A stretch of 64,000 nt of DNA from Sphagnum compactum (lineage: Eukaryota), in NCBI GenBank assembly GCA_965153455.1, contig OZ234493.1, positions 18,404,213-18,468,212 on the forward strand, given 5' to 3'. A program made the position numbers and the translations under genes. The notes under the pieces are model-generated. The model was not told where the DNA came from. It did no database searches and saw only the letters and a program-made list of their open reading frames with translations. Shown here one piece after another: positions 16,655-40,200 of this stretch. Position 1 is the first letter of the stretch. Every line of letters begins with the position of its first letter.

Positions 16655-19600
16655 GGTTGGAGTGAACCAGCAGCCACCAGTGCACCAGTTCAGGATGAGG
16701 CTGTTCAAGCTGTTTTGGGGATGAACCAAAAAACACATCCTCTTCCCCTGCCCAGGGATTTTTCGGCCCCCTTCTTTGCCCCAAAATTTTCCCCTCCTAC
16801 CTACCTCCCCCCAATGACCTCCCTCACCTCATTTCCCGTTCACTCCATCTCCAGAGCTCGGGAGAGCTCCCAAGCTTGAGTAGCACAGAACTTTGAGGAG
16901 ACATGAAACATAGGGCTTGAGGAAGGTGGAGAGGAGAATGCAAGAGGAGTGCTTCATCCCAAATGTAGAAGCAGGAGAAGAAAGGTAAGCTCCCTTCCTT
17001 TGCATTTTTTTTTCTTCTCTATGATTTTGTTTTTTTGTATTTTTTTTCTTTTCTTTTGCTTGAGAAGAAGAAGACGCCATCCACTTCTTCTTTTGTTTTT
17101 TTGTTTATGTTTGAAATGACAAAGGTATTGACACAAGTGTGATGTTGCCTTTTTCTTTTCTTTTGTTTTTTTGTTGCAAACAAGGCAACGACAACAAGCC
17201 TAATTTTTCCTTCTTTCTGTTTGAAATGAAGGAGATGACGGCGGCAAGCTTGTTGCCATTGCATTTTTTTTTCTTCTCTTGTTGTTATTGTGAATAAGGC
17301 AACGACAACAAGCTTCCTATCGTCGCCCATTTTTCTTCTTTTTGCTTGAAGTGAAAATGGGTGACGGCAACAAGCTTGTTGTCGTCACCTTTTCTTTTGT
17401 TGGTGTTGCTACAAAGAAGGTGATAGCAGCTGTCGTCGCCTTTTTCAAGTGTTTTGTTGCAAAGAAGGCAATGGCTTACTAAACCCTAAACCCTTCTTTT
17501 TTTTTCTCTTTTTTTTTCTTGGTCTTTTTACTGTGAAGAATTGTTAATTGTTCTTTAGAATTGATAATTAACAGTGATCTGCTGGTTTTTTTAAATGTTT
17601 AAGGTTATAATGGCTAAAGGAAGGAGACTAAAGAAAGTTGGTGGTGATTTGGAAGCTCAAAACTAAAAATTTATTTCATTAGAACCGACAATTGGGGAGC
17701 AAAATGTTACTCCATCAAAACCAAGAGTTGATGAATCAAGCAATCCATGTGGCTTAAACTTGGCAATGGTGGTTGTTTGCAATTCAAATGATGATATCCC
17801 TTCCAATACAGATTGGGAATTTTGATTGAAAAGTGGTGGATTAAATTGTTGTAGAATCTACATACATTGATCAAATGCAGAAAAAAAATTGTACAAAAAG
17901 ATTTAAATTTAATTATACCTGCACCTTCTATCATTTCATGGACAGTGTGGGATTTGTTTTTCAAAAAAAAATTATTACAATACTTGAAAAAGGTTAAAGT
18001 TTGTAATAATTGCATTTGATTATGTGATTTTATTTTTTGCAATATTTACATTCTGTTGTGTGATTTTTTTATGTCTAAGGTTTTAAAGTTAAGGTTTTTT
18101 TATTACAAAGTAAAAACTTATTTGTTTTTATAGTTTTTGGTTTAGGTCTGGAGTTTGAAACTGACTAGGCCTTTCAACCATTAGCACCCTCTTGTCCATT
18201 TAATATGGCTCGGAAGGATAAAGAATGGATGAACGTTGGGTCGAAATGGAAATGTAAAGTTGGCACTTGCATTGTTGCATATTCTACCAAATGGTTGTTG
18301 AGTAAGCATTTGGAGGTGCATGGCTTAGTGGTTAAAAAGGCCAAACCTGGGAAGCCTTCAATTTTTTAAGGAGGTCCTTGACATCAAGACCATGCTAAAA
18401 TGAACATTCGCATCTTGGGAAATGCCATGGCCATGCATAAACAAAATGATCAAAAGGTTGTTAATTGCATTTGTGCCAAAGCCCAATGTGAGTGGGATAA
18501 AATGGTAATTGTTGTAGAACAATGTCCACCATTACCAAAACCAACTTTGGTCAAATTAACTTCAAAACAAATGTTATAAGTGTTGGGTCTTAATGCTTAA
18601 GGCATGGGAAGCAAGCCTTGAAATGCAGCATCACTAATGGAGAAGGACGAAAATTTACAAGAAATGACTCAATCCATCCGTTAAACATATGCACGATGAT
18701 TGAAAATGGCATGGGATGTCAAAAATTGGGATTAGGAGTCCACTAAAACGAGTCGAACACAAACGTTGACAATTGTATTGAATTTCCATGAATCTAAAAT
18801 GATTCATGGAAAATAAGAAAAAATAATAATCAATATTTGTTGTTTTTTTATAATTTTGTTTCATCCAAGGTGTGTTAGGGTTTAATTTGGTGGTTTTTGG
18901 GTGTTTATAGGGTTTAGGGCAAAACAAAGGAGGAGTTTGTTACAAATGCAATTCATGTTGAAATGTAATGCCAACATTTGAACATTCCTTGTCATGTAGT
19001 AAGGGCTACAAATGCGACAATTGCTTACCAAGTTAAACACGACATTATAAATAGTGATATGGTTTTAGGTTTCCATTTTATATAGTTAGTTAATTCATTT
19101 TTTGGACTACCCACTTTTTGAACTTTGGTCCTTTGATATATTATAGAGAACCTTTTTTTTTCATTGGGTTCTTTAGCATTTTTTGATTCACCCATTTTTT
19201 TACATCTTTTATCAATATAATATTTTCTTCTAGTCACACTTCTTTGATGGGTATACGGTTAATCATATATGTTTTCTTTTTTATCATCTTCTTAGTGCTT
19301 TAGATGTAATAATCAAACTAAAATAGTCCCATATGCACATTTTATAATTAATTTGTGTGAGGTTTACAAAGATCAAAATGAACATAGTGCAATACCTACG
19401 TTTAGTGTATTATGATTCACATCACTTAAAGATTTTTAAAACAGTACCCACATTCTAATTAGTTTATTGGCATTTTCATGAAACCAAACATGCAATACCT
19501 ACATCCTTTTTATTTTAACTTCCATAAGGCCATTTCAAATATGCAATACTTGCATATAGGTCTCATAAATAGTTGTTGGTTTTTTACATCTATTGCAATA

Positions 19601-22504
19601 TTCGCATATAGGTCTCCATTGGAATATTTATGGGATTCATATGATTGAATAATTTAGTCTAAGTATCAACAAATAATGTCACAATTAATGAATTACCAAA
19701 AACAATTTCAAATAATGTAAATGATTGATCATCATATTTAAATAATCATTTATTTCTTAATATTAATTAATTGATTATTTGGTTGAACCTTAATTATTCA
19801 GATAATTAAAATTTAGATTTAAAAATCAAATTGATAATTTGATATTTAATTTATTATCTTAATTAAATTTTTTATGTTGATAAGTTATTCAAATCATTAT
19901 TTTAGATAATGATTCATGATAATTAATTTTCATAAAATTAATTTAGGTATATAAAAAGACATATTTTGGGTACCCAAACCACTTATTGGTTATTTGAAAT
20001 GACCTTACATGTGGGTATTGCATTTAGGGTGGACCTTTCATTTAAGGTTGATTAAATTACTTATGGATTCTTTAATTATTTCGAAATGAACTTACATTTA
20101 GGTATTGTATATAGGCCTTAATTTTCATTCAAAGGACACCCAAACTACATATTGGTTATTTTGAAATGACCCTACATGTGGATATTGCGTTTAAGGTTGG
20201 GTCTGCAACTCAGGTTACTTAAATCACCTATGGGTTATATTGAAATGAACTTGAATATGGGTATTACATTTACGGCGACGTATTCATATAATTTTATAAT
20301 ACCTGCACACATATTTATTTTCACCAACTACAAATTTGGCTTTAATTTTTTTAATAATTAAATAAAATTCGTAACAAAACACAAAAGAAGGTATGTCTCT
20401 TACCGTTTGGTCATATTTCCAAGCTGAGTTCTTTCACTTTAAAAAAAAAGAAATATAATGACATTGCATTGTTTTACATATGTTTAAGCCTTAAAAATTG
20501 TGCCCAAAATGCACCATAGATTTATTTTAATTATTATAAAATTGTAAAAAAAATGTTAATTAATTTATATGTCCCAACCTCTAAACCTAAACCATAATTC
20601 TAACATTAAATAGTAAATTTTACATTAAACCCTAACCCTTTGTACCATCAATGGGACCAATTTTTCATTATGTTTATTTTTATATATGTTAAATCATACT
20701 ATTAGGTGAACAAATAATTTTGAAAACATGAATCTCATGATGGATTGGTGGGGAATCAAATATTTAAAAAATATTTTTATGTTTCATGGTTAATGAATTA
20801 TCACAATATGATACGAGTATTGCATTTAAATTAAAGAGGGTTAAAAAATATTGAACTTTAACAATTATGGAACATATGGAAACAAAGGAGATTCATAATT
20901 GTGGTATAGATCTAAACAAATGATAGGATCAAAAACTAATACAATGAGCAAAGTCTAGAGTATAAACCTTAAGCTTTGATATGTATGAACCAAATTCTTA
21001 AACATTAAATCATAAGGCATAACTTTAAAAATTGAAATGATATTTTTCCATAAGCACTATTACAACTTTAACTAAACGAACCCTAACAAAAAAAAATCTT
21101 AGTGATATATGCCCTAAACCCAAGAAATTATGCAAAACATACAAATTATATAATGCAAAACAATTTTTTTTAAATTAGAAAATAAATTTTAAAGCTTTTA
21201 AACTACAAAGATTTACCAACTGAAGAGAAAACCTTAATTTTAAAAAACAATCAAATAAATTTCGTAAAAAACCAAAAGAGAAGTTAGGTTTGTTACCTTT
21301 GTATGATCTCTCCAAGCTAATTTTTTTCCATTTTCTTTGAAGAAGATATAGAATGAAATTGTATTATTTCACCTATGTCCAAACCTTAAAAATTTCCCCC
21401 CAAATTTAGTTTAATTTAGGTTAATTACTATAAATTTGTGAAAAACTTGCCAACTAATTTATGTGTTCCAACCTTAAACTTAAACCATAATTTAATAATA
21501 CATACTTATAATAATTACATGAAAAGATGTATTATAATGTCCATTCCATAAATAAATTAGGTAAACAAAATTTTGTAAACTATGAATTAATTAAACCAAA
21601 ATGGTTGCAATTATGACATTGTTTCCATTATAAATTGTTTATAATACCTACATATGGGGACCTATGTTCATCATCCATGAACTAGGGCGAACCTTAATAA
21701 ATTGATAAGTAGGATTAAGGGAGGGGTGGAAAAAGTGAGTAGGTAATTAGTTAGGTATTTAGCAATGTAAAAAACATAGGTAGGTAAGTAAACATAATGG
21801 TAGGTAGGAAGGTGGGTGCATAGGTAGGTAAGTAGGTATATAGGTAGGTAGTTGGGTTGGTAGGTAGGTTAATAAAGTAAAAAGGAATTTCAAGAAACAA
21901 GGTAAATAGGTTACTAAGGTAGGTAGGCATGTAGGTAGGCAAGTTAGTAGGTAGGAAAAAAGTTATTCTAGCAATGTAGCAAGGTAGATAAATTAGTACA
22001 TAGGAAACAAATTACCTTATCAAGGTGGCTAGGTTTGTAGAATACTTATGTCAATAGGGTGGTTGTGTATATAGGGTTGTTAAATAGTAAGGTAGCTAGG
22101 TCAATAGGGTACGTGTTAGTACAATGGTTACGTTAGTAGGGAAGCTAAATCGATAGGGTATGTAGTCAACAGGGTAGCTAGGTTAGGAGGGTAGGTAGTT
22201 AATATAATAGCTAGGTTAGTAGGATAATTAGTTATTAAGGTAGCTATGTCAGTAGGGGATAATTAGTAAGGTACCAAGGTTGGTAGAGTACTTATGATAG
22301 TAGGAAAATGAATAGGGTAACTATGTGTGAGGTCAAGTCTAAGAAAAAACAATCAAGAACAAACCCCATAAAAAAAAACATTAGTCAGCAGCGAAAATAA
22401 ATGGACTGTGATGAACCTCATATGGTGTCGAATGGAAGAATGCAGCCCATCTAGTGAACAGAATGGCGAACTGGTGCATTGGTGGTTGTTGGTTCATTCT
22501 GGCC
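16655..22504. mobile_element. MULE copy A, non-autonomous (5850 bp), transposase deleted
   Basis: TIRs of about 36 bp (GGTTGGAGTGAACCAGCAGCCACCAGTGCACCAGTT ... AACTGGTGCATTGGTGGTTGTTGGTTCATTCTGGCC); perfect 9-bp TSD CTTCCCAGT at 16646-16654 and 22505-22513; both arms are homologous to copy B in inverted orientation. Confidence 0.93.
17610..18816 (+). pseudogene. MULE accessory gene with C2H2 zinc finger (copy A), decayed
   Basis: ATG 17610 MAKGRRLKKVGG; acceptor TTTAG at 18145; CKVGTC-x12-HLEVH at about 18253-18321; ends ESKMIHGK* at 18816; several stops and frameshifts. Confidence 0.75.
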
Positions 22505-24732
22505 CTTCCCAGTGGTGTTGTCTTGCCACCAATTCAAAACTCAGTATAATAGGCCAAAATGAACCAGCAGCCACCAATGCACCAATTGGTCGTTTTGTCC
22601 ACTGGATGGGTTGTGTTTTTCATTCTGCGTCGGATGGGGTTCATCACAGTCCATTTCTTTTTGTTGCTGACCACTGTATTTTTTTTATTTTTATTTTTTT
22701 GGTTCTAGCCTTTTTTCCCCTGGACCTAACCTCACACATAGCTACCCTGTTCACTTTCCTACCCTCATAAGTATTGCACCAACCTTGGTACCTTATTTAT
22801 TATCCCCTATTAACACAACTACCCTAATAACTAGTTATCCTATTGACCTAGTTACTATACTAACCACCTACCCTACTAACCTAGCTACCCTATTAATTAC
22901 AAACCTTACCAACTTAACCACTGTACTAACTACCTACCCTATTGACCTAGCTACCCTACATACACAACCACCCTATTGACATAAGTATTTTACAAACCTA
23001 GTCACCTTGATAAGGTAACTTATTTCTTATGTACTAACTTGCCTATCTACCTAACTACCTATTTATCTATGTTTTTTACATAACCAAATACCTAATTAAC
23101 TACCTACTCATTTTTTCCACCCCCACCCCCCCCTCAATCCTACCTATCAATTTATTAAGGTTTGCCCACATGTAAGTATGATAAACAATTTATAGTGAAA
23201 ACAATGCCATAATTGCATCCATTTTGGTTTAGTTAATGCATATTTTACTAAATTTTGTTTACCTAATTTATTATTGAATGGACATTACAATACATCTTTT
23301 CATGTAATTATTATAAGTATGTACTATTGGATTATGGTTTAGGTTTAGGGTTGAGACACATAAATTAGTTAATAAATGTTTCACAAATGTATAGTAATTA
23401 ATCTAAAGTAGGCTAAATTTGGGGGGAAAATTTTAGGGTTTACACATATGTGAAGTAATACAATTGCATTCTATATCTTCTTAAAAAAGAGTGGGAAAAA
23501 TTAGCTTGGAAAGATCACACAAAGGTAAAAGACATATCTTCTCTTTTGGTTTTGTACAAAATTTATTTGATTGTTTTTAAATATTAACATATTTTCTTTC
23601 AGTCAATAAATATTTATAATATAAAACCTTTAAATTTTGGTTTCTAAATTTTTTCCTATGTCTTTTTAAATTTTTTTATTTTGCATTATATAATTTGTAT
23701 AGTTTGTATAGTTTTTTGGGTTTAGGACATATATCACTAAGACATTTTTTGTTAAAATTTGTATAGTTAGGGTTGTAATAAGGCTTATGGCAAAATATCA
23801 TTTGGATTTTTAGGGTTATGCTTTATGATTTAGTGTATAGGAATTTGATTCATATATTTCAAAACCTAAGGTTTATACTTTAAATTTTGCTCATTGTATT
23901 GGTTTTTGATCTTATCACTTGTTTATATCTATACCATAATTATGAATCTCCTTTGTTTCCATATGTTCCATAGTTGTTAGAGTTTAATATTTTCTAACCC
24001 ATTTTTGTATGAGTTATGATTTTTTAAGGTTGCGTTTTCAATTGGGATTATAAACTTTGGTGGAACGTTGTCATCTTTTATTCCTAAAGGTATGCATTTG
24101 TCTCTTGTTACTTCTTTTGTTTTTTTGTTTATATTTTCATAATTCAACCTCTTTTCATTTCATAGTTATTGGATATAAAAAGGGCGTCAAATTTCATTAA
24201 GTATACAACCATAAATAAAGGTTTTATACCTTTACATGGATATTTCATATTCAATATCTCTTTGTAGTTTATTTTTTCATACCCATATGCGAATAATGCA
24301 TTGACTCCCCACAACCAGCGTGGGTTTTATGGCTTAAGGCAGGTATTGCATTTTGCACCTCTCAAACAGTGTGCATTAATTATCATTATGTGGGTATTGC
24401 TACATGGGGTTTTTAGACATTGTGGGTTTAAGGTACAATCCGGGTATTGCATATGTGAACATTTTCAATGATGGAAGGTTTAATAGCTCAATGTGGGTAT
24501 TACCAAAGTTTGTTTTAGTATATGGGTTCATAATGCAAGTATTGTATGTTATGTACATTGGAACAGTAGGTATTTTATATCATGATATGGGTATTGTAAT
24601 GGGAATTCCAAGTCACAACATTGATTTTAAAGGAGCCATGTATGGATTGCATTTTGGGTTTTTGTTCAATGACGAATGTTTATAAAATTATAAATTTTCT
24701 TGGTGCAAGAATTTGTCCTACTTCCTTCAATC

Positions 24733-27512
24733 ATGAAAAGGGTTCTAAAGTCCCATTCCATTCATGTCCAAAACCCCACCAAGTCCTCTTTCTCAAACAA
24801 AGAGTTGGTGTGGACGTCCGGGATACACCATGGAGGGCAAAATAAAGTGACCATTCAATTTGCTTACGTTCCATATGCTCACATCTCAGAATTCTTGGAA
24901 GGTGAACGAGGGGATACGAGCACCCCTATGGAATGGAATGTTTACAAAAATTTCCAAGCCAAACAGATGTCAAGCAACCAACTATCAAAAACCACTTCGG
25001 GCATACATGGTAAACATTTATGGCATTAACCTTTTTAATTTCTTTAATTCATATACCAAAGATGTAATCCTTTATGTTTTGAAAGTTTTTTGGTCTGGGT
25101 ATCAATGTGGATATGGACCAGAGGACTATTGGGGAAAACTCAACCCACACTCGATCTATTAAACGAGGATGCCTAACATCATTCTCAATCAAATGTCTAT
25201 ACACACGACCTCATGTGGCTGAGATCACAATTTATCATAAAGCCCATACATGAATTGATGGGTCATTCGCACATGGTGAGCATGACCCAAAATCCATTTC
25301 TCGTATGTTTCGTTATGCTCCACGCATGTCACAAGCATTGAAGGACCACATATGGGCCCAACTAAGCTTAGGTTACACAACCAAACAAATATATGACAAG
25401 CATAAAGCAATTTGGTGGGAAGGTGTGAATGCGGGTCAAAGCATGACACGAGATGATTTCATTTGGCTTTAAAACATTGCATATTTGGATCGGAAACATA
25501 AAAAAGGGAGTTGGCATTTACACACCAACCCTGTAATTTCAATTCGGTCTTGGGCTCTCCAACATCCGAAAGATGTGTTCTTTTTCCAAGATGTTGGTGA
25601 AATCAACGGGACTCAAGTCCCATTCACCATAGGTATTCAAACACCAACTCAATGTGAGTCCATGCTATCATATGGTCACAATGCTGCCATTTTTATGGAT
25701 GCCATATTTGGCACAAATGACATGAAATTCCATCTATTCACCTTGATGGGGTTTGATGATCATCGCACGGGTGTCCCCTGAGCTTGGATCATTACAAGTA
25801 GGCAAACAGTTCAGGATTTGATCAAATGGTTAAAACCATTAAAAGAGAAGATGTTATCACACATGCCACATTGGAAACCATCATGTTTTCTCGTTGATGA
25901 TGCACTTCAAGAATTGAAGGCATTACGGTTAGTTCTATACCTAGTACCTACTTTGTGTTTATTTCCTTAAATGTTTTTTAATATATTTCATAAAAAAATT
26001 TATTACTTCAAATGCATTTTATGTTGTATTAACCCCATCCACTCATGGAGATTTTATTGCATATGTGTCCTTATTAGGGTCGTATGGGGTATGGACAAGG
26101 TTCCCATCTACCTTTGTTGTTGGCATGTTCTCAAAGCATGGCGCTTACGTGGTACTGAAAAAATCAAAGATGTGGAAGTGCGAGGTTGAATCCTCTAAGA
26201 CCTTCATGATGTGATCTACATGTCCATCAATCATGGAGAAACAATTGATGACTTCAAAGAGCGTGGGAGGGTTGCTGTGAGAGAAAACCTTCTTAAACAT
26301 AGGCCTGGTGATGGGTGGACAAATTATTTCTGGACTTATTACCATCAGTTTAGTAAGTGATAATATTTATCATGGTTTAGTATTCAAAATTCTTTTATAT
26401 AATGTTATTCATCCTTATGTATTATGTTTATGTTTGCAAAATTATGGATGGAGAGTGTTCGAAGAGTGTCCCATTCCAACCAAGACACCTAAGCGAGCAT
26501 TGAATCATATCATGGTGTGTTGAAATGTTGGCTTGTTCTTAACACAAAAGGCCTTAGAGGGCGTAGGATTGATTAGTTGGTGTGGCGATTAACAACAACC
26601 ATTGCACGCCATTATATGCACACACTGGAAATGAAAAAAAAAGGTTTCATAAAAAACAAGGTTATGGAGGCGATTATTACACGAAGTGTGGAAAAGGCAG
26701 CCCTTATTTCACTCACCCATGTGTACCAACCAACCCTTGAGAGTGATGGAGCTTGGGGCGTACGAAGCCAACACCTTCCCAATGTTATTTACGCGGTGAA
26801 ATTCCCATTCACCGAAATATTTTGTTGCACATGTGAATGGGCATTGCGAAGGAACATGTGTAAACACCAAATTGTGGTCATTCTCACATGCATAGACATT
26901 TCTCAAGAGGATATCATTCATTACTGTGGAACATGGTATGGATCACATCGTGGAGGGTTGGGTCACATGTTTGTGGACCCACGACATATTCCAGATGATA
27001 TGGAGTCCAATGATGATGATGAAGATGAACATCTTGAAGGTGATGATGGGATCATGGAATTTGATGGGCTCATGAACATGGAGCAAAATGATCTCCCTAT
27101 GGGTGCCATTGTAGGGTCTAATGACACAATAAATTCATCAACCCCAATGGAAAAGGCTCTTGCACAATTGGTCACTACAATGCAAGATATCACAAATGAA
27201 TGTAAAGAAGGTGATGTGACACTTTGTGAACATGCCACCTCACACATGAGAGTATCGGCATGTAATATTCGTAACATACGCCTCACAAAGGCAAATGTAA
27301 TTTCACACCTAGGATTGGTGTTACGCCGCGTAGAAGATGGATTGGGAAATAGTGTCAAACGGCTCAAAGATTGGCATGAAACAATGCTCAATCACACAAA
27401 TGTACGTACTAAACGATGTCACGAATTAATGTCTCAATTACTAATCAAGATTGTTGCCATTGGCACTAAAGAATTTTGTTTTATAATCAATTTTGTATGG
27501 AGGAAACCATAG
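24733..27512 (+). pseudogene. MULE (Mutator-like) DDE transposase with SWIM zinc finger, intron-containing, inactivated by stops
   Basis: FMDAIFGTNDMKFHLFTLMGFD..GVP*AWIIT (first D), SCFLVDDALQE (second D), LCCWHVLKAW (CxxH), ASIESYHG (E), SWIM CTCEWALRRNMCKH; introns at about 25010-25097, 25928-26077 and 26352-26440; stops at e.g. 25779, 26187, 26574. Confidence 0.9.
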
Positions 27513-27654
27513 CCCAAATTCTTTGAACATCATGTATTCAACACACACATGAAGTTTAATATGGCACAAAGGTTATTATTGTTTCCAAGTAATAAGCACA
27601 AAAAGTGTGAAATGCAAAAACACAAGGATAATGATAATATTAGTGTTAAATGCA

Positions 27655-28125
27655 GGTATTGTAACTAGGCCCCAAAATCCCAGTTGGTAAAAGTAAGTAC
27701 AAGTGCAAGTATTTCAATGATGCCCCAAAATTCCAGTTGGTAAATATAAGTACGGGTGTAGGTATTGCAATGAAACCCCAAAATTCCAGTTGGTGAAGTA
27801 AGTCCGGGTATTGCAAGTTTAAATGAAAAATCAAGCCTAAATGCAATACTCATCTAAATGGTTTGGATACCTTTAAGTGAAGACCTAGTCCTAAACATAA
27901 TATCCACCTGCAAAGTCACTTTGAAATAACCTAACCCTATATGCAATACTTGCATTCAAGGTTACTCCGAAAGTACGCATGTGGGGTTTAAGCCTTCTTT
28001 AAACGAAGATCCTACGCTAAATGCAATACCTGCATTTTGGGTCACTTCGAAAGTACGCATGTGGGGTTTAAGCCTTTTTAAATGAAGATCCTACCCTAAA
28101 TGCAATACCTACATTTTGGGTCACT
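27655..28125. repeat. Tandem repeats downstream of the transposase (about 52 bp x3, then about 79 bp x2.5)
   Basis: CCCCAAAATTCCAGTTGGT recurs three times; GAAAGTACGCATGTGGGGTTTAAGCC recurs twice; the units carry GTATTG/GCAATAC-like motifs. Confidence 0.85.
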
Positions 28126-30594
28126 CTAAAATAATTAGCTAATTTCAAAATAATATGCTAACAAAGGTGTGTATAGAGGTTGGGGTTGTTGATTAGGAGT
28201 TCCATGATTCTTACTTTGTTTCATGAATTTGAAAAGAGGTTGTATCGTTTGTGGAACAAATAGTACAATGACAATTGTGATCAAGTTTATCTTCGTGTAA
28301 GAATTTTTCATGAAAAAGTTGAACTTGCAATCTATAACATGGAATAATTATCTTAAATAGTGATTTCAATAACTTATTAAAACAAAAATATACTTAAGTT
28401 AATCAATCAAATATCAAATTAATTAATCTGATTTTTAGATCCAACTTTTTATTATCCAAATAAATAAAGTTACGCCAAATGATTAGTTAATTATTTTAAA
28501 TAAATAATGATTATCTAATTCTTGATAATTAATCATTTAAATTATCTGAAATATTGGTCTATTAATTATTTCATTATATGACAAAATTTATTGATAATTC
28601 ATTGATTATCAGAAATATTTCATATTAAATTGGGGGGAAATTTTTAAGGTTTAGACATATGTGAAATAATACAACTTCATTCTATATCTTCTTCAAAGAG
28701 ATTGGAAAAATTAGGTTAGAGTTGTCACACAAAGGTAAGAAGCAAACCTTATGTGAAAACCCAACCCTAAATGCAATACAAAGTTTGTCAAGATCAAAAA
28801 AAAAAATTCAAGCTTAAAATTTCTTCAAATATGTTCATATTTTTTTTTTCCCTTTTAAAGTTGTAAACTCATTTCAAAAAACATATATATAAATTTTCTA
28901 ATTTAATAAGATTTTAAACTATGTTTTAAAAAAAATCAAAGCACATGATTTTCTACTTTTTTTTTGTTTTGTTTCACATAATAATAAAAATGATCTCTCC
29001 CATATATTAATCCTATGTTTGATTGAAATTTTATTTTATAATTTTCTGATATATAGTAAATAATTTCTTGGTTAAAATAATCATATAGCGGGTCAAAAAT
29101 ATTTTATATTTTATACATATATAACACAAGTCCTTATGTGAACTTTATTTTTTATGATGTATAATATTGGTTTAAATATTGGTCCAAATATATTGTTATT
29201 TATAACACAAATATATAAATAATGATATTATGGAATTATATTGTTGATTCATTTAAATACATATAATATTTTCATATTTATTTAAAATAAAAAAATTTGA
29301 TATATATATATATATATAAACCTATGGTTACATATATTGCAATTGTTCTTAATGAACTTTGTTTTTAATGTGAATGTAAAAATTTCAAAAGATTAATAGC
29401 TAGGTATGAGAATGTTCATAAGCTCTTAGACGCCATGCCAGAGTTTGTGTGGATTTTAAAAGCTTTGTGAAGGCCAAGTTATGTAATGTTTTCGACACCT
29501 TTAGAAGCTGAAACATGACTCGACTATCTAAAAAACACAATAGTGTTCATAAAAAAACAACCAAGAATCTATAGCCTTGACAAATTACTAGTTTCAACAA
29601 AAGCTCATTGCCAAGGTTATTAGATTGACTAAAGTGTCGACATTAACCAAACTAAACAACTTAGCCTAAACATGAGTAACAGGTTAGTAAGTTATTTGTT
29701 AAATAACCTAATTAACTACCTAATAGGCTACCTACGTAATATAGGCCTATTATGTAGTTTATTCATTAGTGTAGGCCTTCTAGGTTAATATCTTAGATGG
29801 TCTATGTAGGTATTGAAGGTGGTTGAGTTTATTAAGTAAACATACTAGTTATATAAGTAGTTTACTAGCCTAGGCCACATAAGCCTAATAAGCGTTTATG
29901 ATAGTTTAATGTCTAATCCTTATTATATTATAACATATTAAATTTGAATAATTTTTTAAAAAAAAAACACATTTTTTCATATAATTGTTATAAGTATATA
30001 TTATTGGAATATGATTATAATTTAGAGCTTGGGAAACCCTAAATTAATTAACATTTTTTCACAAGTCCATAGTAAATAAAATAAATCTACGGTGCATTTT
30101 AAGGGGAATTTTATATGCAAAACAATGCAATATATATTTTTAAAGAAAGTGAAAGAGATCAGCTTGGAAATATTAACAAATGGTAAGAGATATACCTTCT
30201 TTTGTGTTTTGTTACAAATTTTATTTAGTTATTAAAAAAATTTAAGGCTAAATTTGTAATTGGTGAAAGTAAGTATGTGTGTGAATATTACAAAATTATA
30301 TGAAACCTTAACCCTAAATGCAATAGCCATATTCAAGTTCATTTCAAAATAACCCATAGGTGAATAAGGTAAAACCTGCAATGAAAGGGCAACCTTAAAT
30401 GCAATACCCACATGTAAGGTCGCTTTGAAATACTCAATATGTAGTTTGGGTGCGCCTTTGAATGAAAACCAAAGCCTAGATGCAATACCCACATGTAACA
30501 TCATTTCAAAATAATTAATAAGTGATATGGGTATCTAAAATATGTTTTTTTATATACCTAAATTAATTATTATTCTGAATTAATTTTATGACAA

Positions 30595-30815
30595 ACTACA
30601 AGTTTTGCAATGAATGTACAAAACAAGCAACTATTATGGGACCTATATGCAAGTATTGCAAGGAATGTAAAAAACCAGTGACTATTATGGGACCAATATG
30701 CGAGTATTGTAAGGAATGTAAAAAACTAGCAAAAACTATGGGACCCATATGCGGGTGTTGCAATGAATGTAAAATGCCAGCGACTATTATGGGACCCATA
30801 TGCAGGTATTGCATA
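30595..30815. repeat. 48-bp tandem repeat (about 4.5 units)
   Basis: GAATGTAAAAAACCAGYGACTATTATGGGACCMATATGCRAGTATTGCAA units; the repeat explains the CxxC-repeat ORF 30588-30902. Confidence 0.9.
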
Positions 30816-31492
30816 TTTGAAAATGGCTTTATGGAATTTATAATAGAAAATGATGTAGGTATTATATGTTTAAAATGTGTGTATTGTTTTAAAAGTCTTT
30901 AGGTGATGTGAGTCCTATTACATTAGATGTAAGTATTGCACAATGTTCATTTTAATCTTTGTAGACCTTAGACAAATTAATGTTACCTATTCATATGGTC
31001 CTATTTAAGGTTTGATTCTTACATCTCAAGTACTAAGAAAATTATGACAAAAAAGACATATATGATTAATCATATATCGATCAAACAAATGTGACTAAAA
31101 GATAATATAATATTGATAAAAGATGTACAAAAATGGGTGGATGAAAAATTACCAAAGAACCCAATGAAAAAAAAGGGTTTTTTATAACATACCAAAGGAC
31201 CAAAGCTTAAAAATTGGGTAGTCCAAACAATAAAAGGGTTGAAAAACCTAGCTAACTATATAAAGTGAAACCCTAAACCATATCGATATTTATAATCCTG
31301 TGTTTAGTTTGGTAAGCAACTACTGCATTTGCAGCCTTTATTGCATGATGAGTAGTGTAGAAATGGCGCCATTGCATTTCAGCCTGAACTGCATTTGGAA
31401 CAAATTCTTCTTTTGTTTTGTCCTAAACCTTAACACACCTTGAATGAAATAAAATTATATATAAAAAAATAAACATTGATTATTATTGTTTC

Positions 31493-34400
31493 TTACCTTC
31501 CATGAATCATTCTAGATTCATGAAAATCTAATACATTTGTTAACTAATTTGTCCGATTTGCTTTACTGGACTTTTGATCCCAATTTTTGACATCCCATGC
31601 CATCTTTAATTGTCATGCATATACACAACAGGTGGATCGAATCATCTCTTGTAAATCTTCATCCTTCTCCATCCGTGATGTTACATCTCGAGGCACACTG
31701 CCCACGCCCCAAGCATTGAGACCCAACACCTACCACTAGTAGAAATCAACCAAAATGTAACCACTCCATTTACGACTACATGCGATTAGTAGTCGTTTAC
31801 GACTCGATTTGGGAACATTTGCAACTCCAGGACCATATTTCAACTATTTTGGTCATTCTCACAACTATGATGCAACTATTAAAAAATTTCATCCTATTGG
31901 TTGGATCAATTCTACATTTATTTTCATCCATTAATAGGTTGATATGTCCCATTAGTCACAATAGTCACCAAATTAGTTGCATCCTAAAGGTATTCTACAA
32001 TGACATAAGCGTGTATTTTAATGTATGTACTAAAATTATATATATATAATATGCATATGTATGTATATTGTTCATATAATGAATCTCAAAATTAATATTT
32101 GAACTTTCAATTTTTTATTCAAATCTCAAAATTGATATTTCAATTCTGAAAACTATTATTTTATTTTTAAAAATATATTAGAATTTGAAACGTGATGTTT
32201 GAATCTGAAAATTATTATTTCAATTGTTTAAAACATTATGTGAATTTCAATTTTTTGATTTGAATATGATTTTTTCAATTTAAATTCAAAAAGGCTTATT
32301 TGATACAAAAATTGATATTTGAATTCTAAATTAATATTTTTAAATCCAAAAATTAATATTTCAATTCAGAAATTATTAATTGATTATAAAAACATTTTAA
32401 TTTTGAATATTTTTATATGAATATGAAAATTTCTATTTGAACTCAAAAATTATGCATTTAAATTTTAAATAATTATTTGATTTGAACCTGAAATTTCAAT
32501 TCCAAATTATTATTTTGGATTCTCAAAATTAATATTTCAAGTCTGAAAATTTATTAATTGAGTCTAAAAATGGACATTTCAATTTTGAATATTGTTACTT
32601 GAATCTGAAAATTGACATTTCCATTCTGGAAATTGTTATTTAAATTCAAAAAAATTATTTGATCTAAAAAATGATATTTGATTTCTAAATTATTATTCTC
32701 GAATCTAAAAATTAGTATTTCAATTTTAAGAAATTATTTGACTTGAAAGTTGAAATTTGAATTCCAAATTATTATTTTGGATTTTCGAAATTAATATTTC
32801 AATTCAGAAAATTGTTAATTGAGTCTTAAAATGGACATTTCAATTTTGAATATTCTTATTTGAATCTGAAAATTGACATTTCAATTCTGGAAATTGTTAC
32901 TTAAATTCATAAAATTTATTTGATCTAAAAATTGATATTTGAATTCTAAATTATTATTTTCGAATCTAAAAATTAGTATTTCAATTCAAAAACTATATTG
33001 AGTCTAAAAATTGACATTTTGATTGAAAATAGTTTTATTTGGACTTGAAATTTGATATTTGAATTGTGAAGTTTAAAATTTCAATTTTAATTTGACTTGA
33101 AAGTTGAAATTTGATTTCCAAATTATTATTTTGGATTTTCGAAATTAATATTTAAATTCAGAAAATTGTTAATTGAGTCTTAAAATGGACATTCTAATTT
33201 TAAAGATTATAATTTGAATCTGAAAATTGAAATTCCAATTCTGAAATTTGTTATTTACCTTCAAAAAACTTATTTGATCTAAAAATTGATATTTGAATTC
33301 TGAATTACTATTTTAGAATCTTAAATTTATATTTTAATTCAAAAAATTATTGGTTGAATTTTAAGAGTTTTTCTACTAATGTTATCCATAATAAATCACT
33401 TTTATAAATAATTATAAATGATTATGTTTATTAAATCTAAGTTACATAAAATTATTATTGTGTGTAATATATATTTGTATGTTATATAATTTATATTCTT
33501 ATATTAGAAGTTTAATTAATATAATTAATGTTACATTACTTGAAAATCATTGTAATGATTTCAGATAAGAATTAATTAGTATATGCATAATTATTTTCTA
33601 ATTGAACTTAATATTCACACTCTGTAATTTATAAGTGCAAACCTAAATTAAAAATTTGGAAAAATGTCAGTGTAATTAAAATAATTATTTTATTGATTTT
33701 AATTTCATGAGTTATTGTATATATATATATATATATTAATTTTATGATTAATCATCTATGATAAATATTTTATAGTAATTTTACAGTATTTATGAAAATT
33801 AATGTCATGTTTAACAAATTATTGTATTTATAGTTAACAATTACCAAGAGAAAAAAATTACTTGACCTACAATAATTTTTACAACAATAAATGTAATTAT
33901 AAAATAAGTAATGTAATTAGTTGAATAATAATTTTTCGAAATTTTGTTACTTTTTAATAACAATTGTTAATTCATTACTTCTAATTTTAACATAAATATT
34001 TAAAATATTTTACATTAATTATATTATATATAATTCGATCAAATTCCTAAAATAATAAAATATTTTAAAATATTTTAGTTATTTAATTATTTATGAGTTA
34101 TGTACTAATAACTTGTGAGTAACTAGATAGTTAGTTTGTTAAATATTAAGAAGTTATTACTTATTTAAGTAATTGATAATGAATGTTGAATATTTGTAGT
34201 GTATAATTTATAATTAAATATATGTAAATTTAATCATTATTAATTAAATGATTATCTAGTTATGTAGTACTTGAATTGTTTAGAAATCTAAAAACTAAGA
34301 AAGTAAGGCATGAAGAAAGTTTTGGAATTACAACTTAGTTTGTGAGGAAGTTGCAAGTTCAAAATTTATCCCATATTGTTTGTTCTTGATTCCTATTTTG

Positions 34401-36198
34401 AACACTATATAAACAAGGGGGTGTGGTCATCCAATTTCACATTAAGAAATTTGTGCACATGGGATGAGTTAATTAAAAAGCTCAACGCAAAACAAAAAAA
34501 CAAATTATGCACATTTCTAAAATATTTACCTTCCTAACCTACTTATCTACCTAGCTAGGTAGGTACCTAGTTTGACCTACCCCTCTAGGTTGACCTATGT
34601 AACTACCTACTTAAATACCTACCTATATGAGTAGGTATTTAACCTAGGAACGTAAAACCTACCTACTCATTAAACCTAAGTAGGTAGGTTAGTATGTAGC
34701 CTAGGTTTGTAGGCACCTATTTATGTACCTACCCAACTACCTACCAACCTAATATTAATATTTTTATTAAATTATTTTTATGCCACGTGGCATACTTACA
34801 TTGGGCCACGTGTCATAATATAATATCATCCAAGTATTTGAATTGAACGTCCTAGATATTTCAAAATAATAATAATTATATTTTATAATTAAATATTAAG
34901 ACCCGTGGCAACACATCATTTGCCGTCAATTGTGACCAAAATAGTTGCATCTTAGTCGCATGTGACAATACGTATACAATGGAGTCAAAGGATGAAATGT
35001 ATTTGTTGACTTTTTCTTTCATACAATACCCTTTGTCATTTGCGACTACTTTATCACATGCGACTTATCTTAGGCGACTAAAGGGATTTTAGTTGCAAAA
35101 TGTTTCTTGCAACTAAAATTTAGTCACAAAGACTAGTCGAAAATACATATTTTTCTTCTAGTGTACAACAGGTGTTCTGAAGCTAATTTGATCAAAGCTG
35201 GTTTTGGGAATGGTGGACATTATTTTGCAATAGCTACCAGGTTATTCCACTTGCGTTGTGCTTTGGCACGAACGTGACTAGCAACCTTTTGATCATTCCA
35301 CCTTTGCACAGCCATGGCATTTCCCAAGATGCGAGCATTCATTTTAGCATGGTCTTGATGTCGAGGACTTCTTTCAAAAGTTGAAGGCCTCTTAGGTTTG
35401 GCCTTTTCTGCCACCAAGCCATGCACCTCCTTCAAATGCTTGGTCAACAACCATTTGGCAAAATATGCGACAATGCAAGTGCCAACTTTACACTTCCATT
35501 TCAACCCAACCTTCGTCCATTCTTTGTCCTTCTAAGCCAAATTAGGTGGACAAGGGGGTGCCGGTGGCTGAGAAGCCTGGTCGATTTCAAGTTCCGGACC
35601 TAAACCAAAAAATATCAAGAAGTAAATCAATATTTTGTAATAAAAAAATCTTAACCCTAAAACCTTACACATAAAGAGTTCAAAAAACAGAATGCAGGTA
35701 TTACAAAACATAAAATCACACAATCACATATTATTCCTGTAAACTTTAATTGTTTTCAGGTATTGCAATAAAAAAATTTTGACAAAAAAAATCCCGCACC
35801 TTCCAACAAATGATGGAAGGTACAGATACAATTAAACTTCAAAAAACTTGTACAATTTTTTTTATCTGCATTTAATCTAATGTCCATAAATTTAAAAAAA
35901 ACCTATATTACAAACTGTCATCCTTGTCAACTCTAATCCACATAGATTGTTTGATACATCAATTTTCAATTCTCATTTCTAATGAAACAACATTTTGCTC
36001 CTCAGGTATTAATTATGATAGAACACCATTTTGCTCAGCAATTGCCTCATCTGATGCAACAACATTTTGCTCAACAATTGCCTCATCTGATGTAGTAACA
36101 TTTTGCTCAATAATTGCCTCATTTGATGCAGCAACATTTTGTTTGTGAACTTCCCAATCACCACCACCACTTTTTTTCAATCTCTTTCCTCTAGCCAT
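31493..36198 (-). pseudogene. MULE accessory gene with C2H2 zinc finger (copy B), convergent with the transposase and split by the CACTA insertion
   Basis: ATG 36198 MARGKRLKKSGG plus 12-aa repeats (EQNVxxSDEAIx); next exon from about 35599 with C-x4-C-x12-H-x4-H (CKVGTCIVAYFAKWLLTKHLKEVH); resumes below 31733 as VLGLNAWGVGSVPRDVTSRMEKDEDLQEMIRS..ESRMIHGR*; colinear with 17610-18816. Confidence 0.8.
31734..35163. mobile_element. Non-autonomous CACTA (En/Spm) element, 3430 bp
   Basis: Ends CACTAGTAGAAA ... TTCTTCTAGTG; 3-bp TSD TAC (31731-31733, 35164-35166); subterminal CGACTA/TAGTCG/TAGTTGCA motifs; AT-rich internal tandem array at about 32080-33350; absent from homologous copy A. Confidence 0.93.
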
Positions 36199-36269
36199 TA
36201 CAACCTTCAACATAAAAAAAACCACCATTTCATTGTTAATTATCAATTCTAATGAACTAAACCAAAAGG

Positions 36270-37200
36270 ACTAAAGAAACAAAGAAAAAAAAAAACCGCC
36301 TGCTGCCATTGCCTTCTTAAAAACAACACCATCATAGAAGAAGGTGACGACATTGCTGCCGTCAGCTTCTTCGTAGCAAAACCACCAAAAAGAGGCGCAA
36401 GCCGCCATTTTCTTGCAACAAATCCCTCGAAGAAGGTGACGAAAGTTGTTGTCTTCTTTTTCTTCACTACAACAAAACCATAAAAGAAGATGATGGCTCA
36501 TTACCGTTGCCTTCTTTGTTGCAACAAAACGATAACAAAAGGTGACACTGCCATTGCCTTCTTCGATGCGCTGCTACAAAACAAAAAGAGGAAGGCAACG
36601 ACAACATTGTTGTCGTCGCCTTCTTTGCTACAACAAAACGAAAATAAAAGGCGATGGCAATAATACTGTCGTCGCCTTCTACGCTACACAAAAAAAAAAA
36701 GGTGACGACAGCTTTGTTGCTGTCGCCTTTGCTACGCTACAACAAAACAAAAAGAAGAATGTGACAGTAGCAACGCTACTGTCGCCTTCTACGTTGCAAT
36801 TTTAAAAAAAAGGCGACGGTAGCTTTGTTGTTGTTGCCTTCTTCGCAGCACTGCAACAAAATAAAAAGAAGAAGGCGATGGCAGCAACACTACCATCGCC
36901 TTCTTTGCTGCCGTCGCTTTCTACGCTGCAACAAAAAAAAAGAAGTAGAAGCAATGTCAGCCTTCTTCACAGCGCTGCAACAAAACAAAAAGAAGAAGGC
37001 GATGACAACTTTACAAAGCTGCCATTGCCTTTTGCATTCTAACAAAAAAAAAAAAAAAAGTTGCCGTTGCCTTCTTCGCTGCGTTGAAACAAAAGAAAAA
37101 AAAGAAGGTGACGGCAGCAACGTTGCCATTGCCTTCTACGCTGCAGCAAAAAAGAAGAAAAAAACGATGGCAGCTTTGCAACAAAACAAAAAAAAGAAAA
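36270..37200. repeat. Array of short palindromic units (AAGAAGGCGAYGRCAGC..GYTGYCGTCGCCTTCTT) upstream of the accessory gene; shorter counterpart at about 17050-17480
   Basis: GAAGGYGAYG and CRTYGCCTTC alternate, separated by GCTRCAACAAAA and poly-A. Confidence 0.85.
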
Positions 37201-40200
37201 CAACGAAATGAAAAACAAGAAGGCTTAAGGGAGGGAGTTTACCTTCAAGGTCCCGTGTGGGTCCTGCTTCAGGCACTCCAACAGTGGCTCTGCTCTCGCT
37301 CTCGCTCCAACAATGGCTTTGCTCTCGCTCGACGGCTCCCGAGCCCTGGCGATGGAATGAGAGGTAGGAGGTGGGAGGTAGGAGGGGGGAGGTAGGTGGG
37401 AGGGAGGTAGGTACGAGGGAAAAATGTTGGGGCGGAGAGAAGAGGTGGAAAAAAACAATAACTTTGGGTAGGGAGGATGTGCTTTTGGTTCATCCCCAAA
37501 ACGGCTTCAACAGCCTCATCCTCAACTGGTGCATTGGTGGCTGCTGGTTCACTCCAACCAGTATAATATTATCACCAACCAGGTTCTTCATTTGAATCTT
37601 TCAATGTATTGAAAACAACTTGTGTTTGAATTCCCTTGTTGTGCTTTTGGTATTGTTAGATAACCCTGGATGAGACAATATGCATGATACCAGTGAAGCT
37701 AAAGTTCTTGAATTTAGAGTGATTTCCATTGTTAGAAATTAATTAGAAATTATAAAATTGGTTTTTTAAACTAATCAATGCCTTTTCATCAACTTGGCCA
37801 AAGTAGAAGCTCATTGGGCATCAAATTTTTCCTTCCACATTATATGAGGAAATGCATGGGAAATTTCAACGAATCAATGCTTCTTCATCATATTGGCCCT
37901 TCAGATTGACCCCTTCACATTCCAATACTTAACCGGAACAATGTTATTTGTTTTCTATTTGCATTTGTCCATACAGGAAACATTTGGGAGATGGCATCTT
38001 ACGGTGCCTAGATTGTACCTTACATAATTAAGTGTATGTGCATGTATTTTCTTCCAGTTTTTTCACATGAAAGGTTGCTGCAATGGCTTGAAATTCTTTC
38101 CTATACAAGGCATTTCACAAGGTCAATGCTTACTTTTTTGAGATATTTAACCACTAAATGTCAGGAGTGACAATTTACAATGTAAAGCAGCCCATATTGG
38201 GCTTGTCTGACGTTCAGGAGATGATTTGCGCTCACCAATGACCATCGTCTACCAACGACCTTTCAGAGAAAAAGAATACTTAGAGGAAGTATCTCATTCT
38301 CTAATTTGAGTTTATGCTTTCGAATGACTTTTACAATGTAGATGTGTTGTAAAGGTGTGTAGTCTGTACCTGCACATGCTGCAATATTTGGTGCCTTTTT
38401 AAGTGGCAGAATCGACCATCACGGTCATATCTGTCATTACTGACCTTTGCATCTCCATTTGACAACTACCTGGACAACCTACCACAGACATTGAGGGCAG
38501 GGAACTGGAATCTGCCAGGTCTTGTCTGTAATCTAGTGCACTATGGAGTCCATCTACTAGATAATGGGGTCCATGTACCAAATACTATAATAACTTGGCG
38601 GCTTTGGCACAAATTATATATATATTTTTAAAACGCTGCAATTTTCAAATTTTATTTTTCTGAAAAATGATTTTTTTTGGAAGGAGATTGAAGAATATTC
38701 TGGAATATTCTATTTTTGGAAATGGAATTCTCCAATTTAATTAATTGTTGGGCAGACATGTGCTGAAGCCGCTCCTGAGTCGATATTTTTCCTACAGAGG
38801 TGTAGATTGGGATCTATCTTGCAATAGCTTTATGCTAACCTGGGTGCTGGTTCACTCTGGCCCTATTCTAACCTCTCGTACATCTGTGAGTTTGGTGTCT
38901 CCATCCAGCACATGGTGGAATCAGGAAAGTAATTAGCTCACTGTTACTGCCACATCATAATTCAACTGGCACTGGTTTGAAGCTTTGCTTACCGATTTTG
39001 GCCCATCGATGTCCATTTATCACATTTAAGCTGGCCCATTGACCTATAACATTAATGCTGCACCAATGTATCAACTCTGACGCTCGGACCAACATCGCAG
39101 CTTTGATACCTGACAGTGTCTATTATGTAACTTGTAATTTATTTAGTAAATAATTTTGTAGACGTTATTGTTTTGTCTCTGCATAGCTAGCTAGTTGCTA
39201 TTGTGGCTACACAGCTAGCCTAATCCTTAAAATAGCATAGTTGGGTAAGTATTTCTGGAAGGTGGAGTTGACTTGGTGATTTCTGTTTTTGAAAAGGGTG
39301 ACTAGGATCGCTGTTTATTATTTGCACATGTCTGCAGAGTGACTGCAGTGGTAATAAGTGTGATTGAACACATCGACAACATGTGTGTTGTTAAGCGGAG
39401 TGTATTTGGCTATGGGGTTATCGCAAAGAGAAGGCAAATTTTGGTGATTGGGTTACTTGCAAAGGGAATGCATTTGACTTCACAGAATCACCAATCAGAG
39501 GTTAACATGCTTCAAATTTTGTAGAAGGCTAAATTTTAATTGAGGTTGCCCATTTTCTTCATTGCTTTAGTGGTAAGAAGTTTTATCCAAGAAATCTTCA
39601 ATAGAGTTTTGTAGACGAAATATCCTGGTGCTACAAACTTTGCATGCCATTAGAATTTAGCATACACTACAAGAGTCACTTGAGTCAAGACTGGTCCACG
39701 TTGCTCAATGCGTATGCTTAATTCTAATGTGACACTTGCCAATTGTGACTTTCCAGCCACCAGAAGAATTTAAGATACATTACAAGACTAGTCCCCAATA
39801 GATTATGGGGCATGATTAACTAGGGCTGGCCCATGGATATGTGGTGCAAGAGAATCTAAATGGCATGCCGCATAAGCCAACATGAAGTAGATGAAAAAAA
39901 AGGTTGGAATGGGCAACCTACATAATTCAACCAATATTTTGTAAATTGAGCAAGAAAATTTGGGCTTAAGCTTTTGAAAAATATTTCAAAAATTGGTGGA
40001 GAGCTTTCTAATTTCTGCATTTCCCAGCTCCAAGAACTACAACACACAACCATCAAAGTGCTTGATACGCCAAAAAAACGTAGTCCAATATAATTCACAT
40101 TTAACTTTTTTGTTTCACCTTAACCTTCAAAAAAAGGTATTTATGTCTTTGATTTCTTTCATATCTTGCACAATTTGGTTAATAGTCTTGTTAACTAGAA

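Follow-up and report, generated by a model that had tools for sequence, protein, structure and literature searches.

A convergent second gene with a predicted C2H2-type finger in decayed Mutator-like transposons of Sphagnum compactum

We analyzed 64,000 nucleotides of Sphagnum compactum DNA (GenBank assembly GCA_965153455.1, contig OZ234493.1, positions 18,404,213 to 18,468,212 of the forward strand; below, the window, whose first base is position 1) and found that it contains two old, inactivated insertions, A and B, of one Mutator-like element (MULE) family. In its full-length form, which was observed in B and in one related locus, L066, the family carries two convergent genes: a MULE transposase, putatively of the SWIM type, and a second gene for a protein with a predicted zinc finger. 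The second gene belongs stably to the element, where its position is fixed, and it also occurs in the many transposase-less derivatives such as A. We consider it probable that this is a genuine element gene, once under selection and now present in decayed copies, and we read the system as a bryophyte MULE with an accessory gene from an as yet unnamed family of C2H2-finger proteins. An earlier note, made from the letters of the window, had proposed a two-gene element with an accessory factor of a possibly new mudrB/VANC type.

Related loci were retrieved via the second gene itself. A pattern scan of metagenome contigs returned at least 600 matching stretches, at least 558 of which were confirmed by tblastn, and the best 80 of the confirmed stretches (73-81% identity, 427 kb in total) were used as the locus set L001-L080. 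A protein search was performed with exon 2 of the B copy, with stops read as X, against 1.84 billion representatives, and a 5.8-billion-cluster set was searched for relatives of the second protein; stops were also read as X when stop-bearing frames were scanned with Pfam.

Two related elements lie head to head in the window

An inverted-repeat scan and a blastn comparison of the two halves revealed two related elements arranged head to head, with 47 bases between them (22505-22551). As the earlier note had described for an element bounded by terminal inverted repeats and a target-site duplication, together with a diverged sister copy, the ends and the 9-bp duplications could be read at both elements:

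22552-37559, transposase on the + strand and second gene on the - strand: element B, bounded by terminal inverted repeats and a 9-bp target duplication
22552-22589, + strand: left terminal inverted repeat of B, by direct reading; it also matches the ends of A
37522-37559, - strand: right terminal inverted repeat of B, by direct reading; it pairs with the left end of A (78 nt at 95%)
22543-22551 and 37560-37568, no strand: target-site duplication of B, AGTATAATA, 9 bp, by direct reading
16655-22504, + strand, inverted relative to B: copy A, with terminal inverted repeats of about 38 bp
16646-16654 and 22505-22513, no strand: target-site duplication of A, CTTCCCAGT, 9 bp, by direct reading
24733-27512, + strand: MULE transposase pseudogene of B, with a Pfam MULE match and in-frame stops

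The ends of B read GGCCAAAATGAACCAGCAGCCACCAATGCACCA... on the left and GGTTGGAGTGAACCAGCAGCCACCAATGCACCA... on the right (other strand), and 31 of 38 bases agree, as counted by eye, between the left repeat and the reverse complement of the right one. Target-site duplications of MULEs are described as 8-11 bp long (PMC6446971), and both A and B combine 9-bp duplications with terminal inverted repeats of about 38 bp. The blastn alignment of A with B consisted of 19 pieces at 69-88% identity. The transposase region of B (24001-28077) found no match in A in this comparison, and A is thus an internal-deletion derivative without the transposase. Its second gene lies on the + strand, with the ATG at about 17610 and exon 2 at about 18151-18830. 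An Rfam scan of positions 16000-38000 of the window matched no family.

The second gene has three exons and is dead in both copies

The second gene comprises three exons and encodes a protein of about 300 residues, which has a conserved C-terminal part (LG..WGVGS.P ...). Features that had been listed for a convergent gene on the - strand, namely a basic N-terminus, 12-residue repeats and a finger of spacing C-x4-C-x12-H-x4-H, were read in B, where the gene consists of the following parts:

36027-36198, - strand: exon 1, with the ATG at 36198 and the donor GT at 36026-25
35164-35599, - strand: proximal exon 2 (linker, C2H2 finger, basic helix)
31734-35163, no strand: nested CACTA-like non-autonomous transposon splitting exon 2, with CACTAG...CTAGTG ends
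31497-31733, - strand: distal exon 2, ending ...ESRMIHGR at a GTAAG donor (GT 31496-95)
31273-31438, - strand: probable exon 3, approximate bounds, by homology to the annotated protein P0264

The ATG opens MARGKRLKKSGGGDW..., with the basic N-terminus MARGKRLKK, and a 36-bp tandem repeat of 3.3 copies (36022-36141) encodes the acidic 12-residue repeats of the protein. The donor of exon 1 and an AG acceptor before 35599 join exons 1 and 2 in frame, and the annotation of a Sphagnum balticum protein (P0243) splices them likewise. The finger in exon 2 reads CKVGTC-IVAYFAKWLLTK-H-LKEV-H. At the other end, the Sphagnum jensenii annotation (P0264) splices exon 2 to exon 3 as modelled here. The corresponding region of B (31422-31279) is homologous to the last 51 residues of P0264, and an in-frame TAG (31425-31423) precedes this homology. 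A tblastn search with exon 3 returned 60 sequences, and 33 of the 53 near-full matches were stop-free. The gene end had previously been placed at 31493; this is probably incorrect, as a short exon 3 (about 31438-31273) likely lies beyond it, but the TAA at 31495-93 is real if exon 2 is left unspliced, in which case the frame stops there.

The claim that the gene contains introns was correct for the intron between exons 1 and 2 but not for the gap of 3.4 kb at 35163-31734. This gap is not an intron but a nested insertion. It has CACTA ends, a duplicated 3-bp target (TAC) lies on either side of it (31731-33 and 35164-66), and the site is empty in A and in 76 related loci. CACTA-type termini with a 3-bp duplication are generally known as the defining features of CACTA elements. 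The insert is 3.4 kb long, its interior contains 17% G+C, and it carries tandem repeats of 19-41 bp and of 182/261 bp. The site is uninterrupted in A. In 70 of the 80 loci a single codon separated the flanks of exon 2; in four the gap was 2 nt, in two the flanks overlapped, and the remaining four could not be assessed (two were cut by a contig end and two had diverged); the insert was therefore absent from A and from all 76 loci that showed both flanks. A copy of the CACTA-like element that was 77-85% identical occurs at another site, in locus L075 (5520-8582).

The same gene is present in copy A, as had been stated, with 66% amino-acid identity between A 18214-18519 and B 35223-35531 (tblastn). 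In B, exon 2 contains the in-frame stops TAG 35534-32 and TAA 35222-20, at which A has Arg and Gln codons, and exon 2 of A is an unbroken frame (18169-18693) that contains about seven stops. The stops in A and B and, additionally, the insertion in B show that neither copy of the second gene in the window is alive. Since only dead copies are found there, the window has no local functional consequence.

The second gene holds a fixed position in a moss element family

To describe the gene across the family, we compared the start, the splice sites and the flanks of the related loci. The ATG was kept in all 61 loci with an exon-1 match from residue 1, the N-terminus was conserved as M[AG][RK][GR][RK]RL[RK]K, and the acceptor AG was kept in 74 of 80 loci, with distances of 524-886 nt from the ATG to exon 2. 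The acidic 12-residue repeat block, which adjoins the conserved finger, varied in length across the locus set, with about two units in the shortest copies and more than ten in the longest.

Of the 31 loci whose upstream flank reached at least 2.5 kb, 21 showed a correctly oriented terminal repeat upstream of the gene. The distance was 0.8-2.8 kb in 20 of these 31 (about 2.0 kb in B), and in L075 it was 5.1 kb, with the CACTA-like copy in between. Locus L066 was colinear with B throughout, and its transposase was convergent and lay about 4.4 kb downstream of the second gene. Identity between the two was 90% over B 22552-27809, 88% over 28017-30526, 83% over 30315-31733 and 81% over 35164-36541. 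In both transposase-bearing copies, B and L066, the second gene was located between the transposase and one terminal repeat. The other loci were assorted deletion derivatives; L072, for example, was without B 23754-27684.

The transposase of B was identified by Pfam PF10551 (MULE; cut-off 27.6 bits), which matched the read-through frame with 31.5 bits (25113-26189) and 31.4 bits (25254-26189); the match in L066 scored 32.5 bits. The SWIM-type zinc finger that follows the catalytic domain is defined as CxCxnCxH, and a SWIM-like CxC...CxH motif, CTCEWALRRNMCKH, was read by eye in the open reading frame 26577-27512, where Pfam reported no SWIM family at E <= 0.1. The MULE identity claimed for 24733-27512 on the + strand was thus borne out, but the gene is not intact: three in-frame stops (25251-53, 25470-72 and 25779-81) make it a pseudogene. 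A fourth stop in the frame (25968-70) is probably inside an intron, which likely occupies about 25950-26110. The L066 transposase showed 83% protein identity to that of B over the core and was likewise full of stops. A search of the window and the 427 kb of loci for further transposase copies found them only in B and L066. Longer or fused relatives of the transposase core were not found either, which is weak evidence.

At the protein level, exon 2 of B gave 162 matches at E <= 0.001 and 69 at E <= 1e-10 among the 1.84 billion representatives. Nearly all were short open reading frame fragments, and identity ranged from 81% down to about 31%. Three long matches (702, 336 and 410 residues) were inspected and discarded, as they were an unrelated multi-finger protein and two repeat proteins. 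Relatives at 31-46% identity, with E-values down to 1e-17, kept the finger and the motifs PST..GP.HQDH..MN, KP.LV.L and LG..WGVGS.P, and the distant relatives at about 30% identity also appeared to be multi-copy and decayed, with lost cysteines. When diverged relatives were sought with 20 proteins in the window and in the locus set (427 kb), nothing beyond this one family was recovered. About 20 of the 120 protein clusters listed spanned at least 99% of the 223-residue exon 2 without interruption.

Among the relatives, which included 366 matches in the cluster search, the only named organisms were S. balticum and S. jensenii, whose proteins are annotated as "unnamed protein product"; as inferred from these, the MULE family appears to belong to peat mosses. 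A close cellular parent gene, which would have meant capture by a Pack-MULE, was absent from the 162 and 366 matches and from the search at longer lengths, although the moss genomes themselves were not searched. Likewise, no longer or fused form of the second protein was found among the 5.8 billion clusters at longer lengths, which is weak evidence. The proposal that the second gene is a family component rather than a one-off capture agrees with its fixed position, its conserved ATG and acceptor, the frame-specific constraint described below and the lack of a parent among these matches.

Constraint on the second gene is frame-specific

The numbers of stops in the 76 loci with 186 codons were zero in 8 loci, one in 21, two in 22, three in 9, four in 7, five in 3, six in 5 and seven in 1 (mean 2.26). 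Intact frames, a search for which had been suggested, were thus seen over these codons in 8 of 76 loci.

We then estimated the nonsynonymous to synonymous ratios by pairwise Nei-Gojobori counts among 63 non-redundant copies, with two shifted frames as controls. The ratio of mean dN to mean dS (substitutions per site) was 0.37 in the coding frame, 0.56 in shifted frame 1 and 0.72 in shifted frame 2, and the pooled ratios of proportional differences (pN/pS) were 0.43, 0.61 and 0.75, with codon-bootstrap 95% intervals of 0.34-0.54, 0.49-0.76 and 0.61-0.94, respectively. A ratio near 1 across the family had been named as an outcome that would speak against an element gene, and it was not observed. 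Within the coding frame, pN/pS was 0.54 in the linker, 0.23 in the finger, 0.61 in the basic helix and 0.38 in the C-terminal part. The four metal ligands were kept in 61, 55, 63 and 63 of the 63 copies, compared with a mean majority-residue share of 0.85. Diversity at codon positions 1, 2 and 3 was 29.3, 26.1 and 36.7. Singleton variants were spread evenly over the codon positions (89, 82 and 85), as expected for decay after insertion. These sequence comparisons suggest moderate, frame-specific purifying selection in the past of the family, strongest on the finger and overlaid by neutral decay of the insertions.

The finger is predicted to adopt a beta-beta-alpha fold

Classical C2H2 fingers have the spacing C-x2-4-C-x12-H-x3-5-H and a beta-beta-alpha fold. 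The second protein shows this spacing together with a predicted beta-beta-alpha fold, and it is not recognized by the Pfam C2H2 score. Pfam scans of B, A, the intact exon 2 P0178, the two annotated Sphagnum proteins and two distant relatives yielded no family above its cut-off; the highest scores were 17.3 bits for PF00096 (zf-C2H2; cut-off 25.2, in P0036) and 13.8 bits for PF23077 (cut-off 27, in B).

The AlphaFold2 (AF2) model of P0178, built on a 32-sequence alignment, had a mean predicted local distance difference test score (pLDDT) of 66. It contained a beta-beta-alpha unit at residues 30-63, with strands at 30-34 and 37-41 and a helix at 45-63, and the pLDDT of this unit per 10-residue block was 83, 65, 88 and 83. 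Additionally, a 44-residue helix (87-130) was modelled with a pLDDT of about 90, and the remainder consisted of lower-confidence helices. A profile search of the PDB gave only a weak match, to the fingers of TFIIIA (E 0.0042). The best feature score in the ESM Atlas was 0.89, to unnamed clusters, which we regard as a lead only. The fold check suggested for this protein was positive for the predicted beta-beta-alpha unit but not for a structural match, as described below.

Tandem arrays occupy the non-coding DNA of the elements

The non-coding regions of B contain several tandem arrays:

22819-22959, no strand: 17/33-bp subterminal tandem repeats in the left arm, with a mirror array in A at 22155-22267
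27651-28126, no strand: 53-bp (x3) and 80-bp (x2.4) tandem arrays between the two genes
30599-30813, no strand: 4.2 copies of a 51-bp unit in tandem, downstream of the second gene
36628-37174, no strand: 114-bp and 62-bp subterminal tandem repeats in the right arm

The 53-bp unit matches three adjoining stretches in L066, and the 51-bp array gives several overlapping matches in L072 and L073. Such repeated matches of several B arrays suggest that array copy number differs in the other copies.

We also observed a 12-mer, CAAGTATTGCAA, that is common to the 53-bp array (27651-27828) and the 51-bp array (30599-30813) and is found in five other places. When one mismatch is allowed, it matches 8 times in the window where about 1 match would be expected; 7 of the 8 fall within A or B. 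This excess was set aside as evidence of a binding motif because any repeated element would give it; the shared 12-mer could be a protein-binding motif or could merely reflect common ancestry of the arrays.

Comparison with known MULE second genes

The terminal repeats of maize MuDR are roughly 200 bp long, and those of the moss element, at about 38 bp, are much shorter. Apart from this and the host (Zea instead of a moss), the two elements are alike in being MULEs with a 9-bp duplication, terminal repeats and two convergent genes (PMC6446971, PMC9168764). In both B and L066 the second gene is convergent with the transposase and inside the terminal repeats. In the published descriptions, mudrB resembles the moss gene in lying between the transposase and one terminal repeat and in having no assigned domain family; the moss protein differs in its C2H2 finger and tandem acidic repeats, although it was compared with MURB by description and not by sequence. 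Extra open reading frames are established for several MULEs, including mudrB in maize, mutB in Yarrowia Mutyl and vanB and vanC in Arabidopsis, and antisense PMD open reading frames occur in many angiosperm MULEs (PMC6446971). Convergent ones are described for several plant lineages (PMC6446971, PMC9168764).

VANC combines a conserved domain with variable tandem peptide repeats, and its binding motifs are arranged as tandem repeats in the non-coding DNA of the element (PMC5735166). The moss element is similar to VANDAL21/Hiun (VANA, VANB, VANC) in that a conserved part is joined to variable peptide repeats, here of 12 residues, and in its tandem DNA repeats, which differ between copies (PMC5735166); the resemblance is in architecture only. 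However, the moss element has clear terminal repeats, which VANDALs are described as largely lacking (PMC6446971), and one extra gene where VANDAL21 has two, and it was likened to VANC by description rather than by sequence.

In the grass element Abermu, ORFR is located between the transposase (ORF1) and the 3' terminal repeat in the opposite direction (PMC9168764). ORFR is reported to evolve faster than the transposase with Ka/Ks below 1 (PMC9168764), which parallels the moss accessory arm (81-83% against 88-90% identity; pN/pS 0.43). The hosts differ (grasses and a moss), the account of ORFR that we compared names no finger (PMC9168764), and this comparison was again made by description and not by sequence. 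For Yarrowia Mutyl, mutB is given a DNA-binding role, and C2H2 is among the zinc fingers of the Mutyl subgroup (PMC6446971), although the host is a fungus and no more than descriptions were compared. Finally, A and most related loci resemble Pack-MULEs in being transposase-less MULEs that carry a gene. They differ in that the carried gene is complete, holds the same position in the transposase-bearing forms B and L066 and has no parent gene among the matches, and of the two elements in the window A alone is without the transposase.

No MULE of such a kind from Sphagnum or another moss was found in the full-text literature, with subscription journals and supplementary files outside the scope.

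Origin of the second gene

Several observations weigh against the view that the second gene is a true element gene once under selection. Pseudogenes make up most of the family, including both copies in the window. With the mean of 2.26 stops, a Poisson distribution would leave about 8 copies without a stop, and the 8 observed thus represent no surplus of intact copies. The selection signal is modest: pN/pS was below 1 in the off-frame controls as well, the shared variants (110, 97 and 127 at codon positions 1, 2 and 3) lean to the third position without significance (p 0.13), and A compared with B alone appears neutral (66% identity in the coding frame vs 69-79% off-frame). The finger scored below every Pfam C2H2 cut-off, and a Foldseek search of the PDB gave no match at E <= 0.001, with 30 weak rows that were long-helix proteins. 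The accessory arm is more diverged between B and L066 than the transposase arm, which could reflect looser constraint and an approximately twice-faster accessory arm or recombination between subfamilies. Linkage to the transposase rests on two of two copies only. Just one of the five loci with at least 5.5 kb downstream (four distinct copies) has a transposase, and the count is biased by ascertainment because the loci were retrieved via the second gene. The linkage to the transposase that the earlier note had proposed to check was seen in B and L066, the only two transposase-bearing copies available for the count.

RNA data were examined in one polyA run (X14) from the species in which L023, a copy with an intact open reading frame, is best represented (about 12% sampled, at 90% likeness), and these also count against the gene. 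Depth was 0 over L023 1665-3200, a stretch comprising exon 1, the intron and the greater part of exon 2, and no splice joints were found in this run at the predicted introns of L023. Of the 135 reads that matched L023, a few fell at the 3' end of the gene and all others outside it. Contigs of three metatranscriptome runs span exon 2 (word depth up to 277) and the intron alike; they give no support for transcription because exon and intron are covered alike and DNA may be present. Separately, we noticed that polyA reads pile over L023 1-900, its terminal/subterminal part, with a depth of up to about 14 and loose ends that run into unrelated sequence. These look like read-through or chimeric transcripts from other copies and not like transcription of the gene.

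The strongest competing explanation is that the element long ago captured a host C2H2 gene by transduplication. The gene would now be a passenger that the element does not need, and its conservation would stem from the host past or from weak selection that has nothing to do with transposition. Host sequences are often picked up by MULEs, whose extra open reading frames are commonly assumed to be host-derived (PMC6446971). That most gene-bearing copies are without a transposase, that neither an excess of intact copies nor a polyA signal was seen and that the accessory arm diverges faster than the transposase arm are all compatible with capture. Nevertheless, we judge it unlikely, as neither a cellular parent nor a longer homologue appeared in the 1.84 billion representatives or the 5.8-billion-cluster search, and the only named matches are element-like copies in two Sphagnum species. 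Moreover, the gene is no fragment but is complete with a start, three exons and canonical splice sites, the frame-specific constraint was measured among the element copies themselves, and the relatives at about 30% identity likewise look like multi-copy, decayed sequences, with lost cysteines.

It is very unlikely, in our view, that the protein is a repressor or a host-beneficial self-limiting regulator instead of a helper. The general architecture alone, a DNA-binding finger with acidic repeats, would suit this, and non-autonomous copies, which carry the gene in bulk, could titrate or repress; however, the known MULE extra genes to which a role is ascribed act for the element (mudrB, VANC; PMC6446971, PMC5735166). 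That the second gene is conserved non-coding element DNA, such as transposase-binding or promoter sequence with a frame open by chance in some copies, is scarcely credible: the lack of a Pfam family, fold match or RNA support and the stops in most copies would fit, but the coding frame has a lower pN/pS than either shifted frame, with the minimum in the finger, the ligands are almost invariant, protein relatives persist at 31-46% identity with E-values to 1e-17, which neutral DNA would not keep, AF2 predicts the beta-beta-alpha unit with confidence, and the ATG and splice sites are conserved.

Possible function of the second protein

Taking the second gene as an element gene, we regard it as most likely that the encoded protein served the element as a DNA-binding helper, be it as a cofactor of the transposase or as an anti-silencer. 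The features resemble the make-up of a small sequence-specific DNA-binding protein, and we hold the idea that it helped the element through DNA binding as a tentative one, with rather less than an even chance of being correct. The basic N-terminus is similar to a nuclear localization signal and would bring the protein into the nucleus. The acidic repeat block next to the finger is presumably disordered, and the finger with the adjoining basic helix may bind DNA in a sequence-specific manner. The likeliest targets would be the subterminal or intergenic tandem arrays of the element itself (17/33, 53, 80, 51, 114 and 62 bp). Once bound, the protein might recruit or assist the transposase or, as with VANC, which binds motifs of its own element and causes DNA methylation to be lost, keep non-coding regions free of silencing. 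Such a mechanism cannot operate in the window because both genes carry stops and the second gene of B is also split by the CACTA-like insertion.

A more specific version, which we consider quite unlikely, is that a VANC-like factor for sequence-specific self-protection, built around one C2H2 finger, arose independently in the moss MULE. Here the finger and helix would read short motifs multiplied as tandem arrays in the non-coding DNA of the element, and the fast-changing acidic repeats would tune activity or partners. Protein and arrays would co-evolve and define which subfamilies escape silencing. If this were true, anti-silencing by element-encoded factors would have recurred among plant Mutator elements and would date back to the bryophytes.

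Mutator elements have few extra genes (mudrB, VANB/VANC, Abermu ORFR); these are restricted to particular lineages and for the most part unexplained, and in the literature compared here a worked-out mechanism is described for VANC alone. The moss gene adds an abundant second gene with a recognizable, predicted DNA-binding module from an early-diverging land-plant lineage. It offers hundreds of copies for evolutionary analysis and some intact open reading frames for expression, and it thus lends itself to the question of whether plant MULEs in general encode accessory DNA-binding proteins. Where two Sphagnum assemblies list copies as genes for an "unnamed protein product", annotators should treat these as transposon genes and mask them.

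Spacing of the two insertions

A and B, each with its own target-site duplication, were inserted only 47 bases apart, which suggests a local insertion preference or a hotspot for the family.

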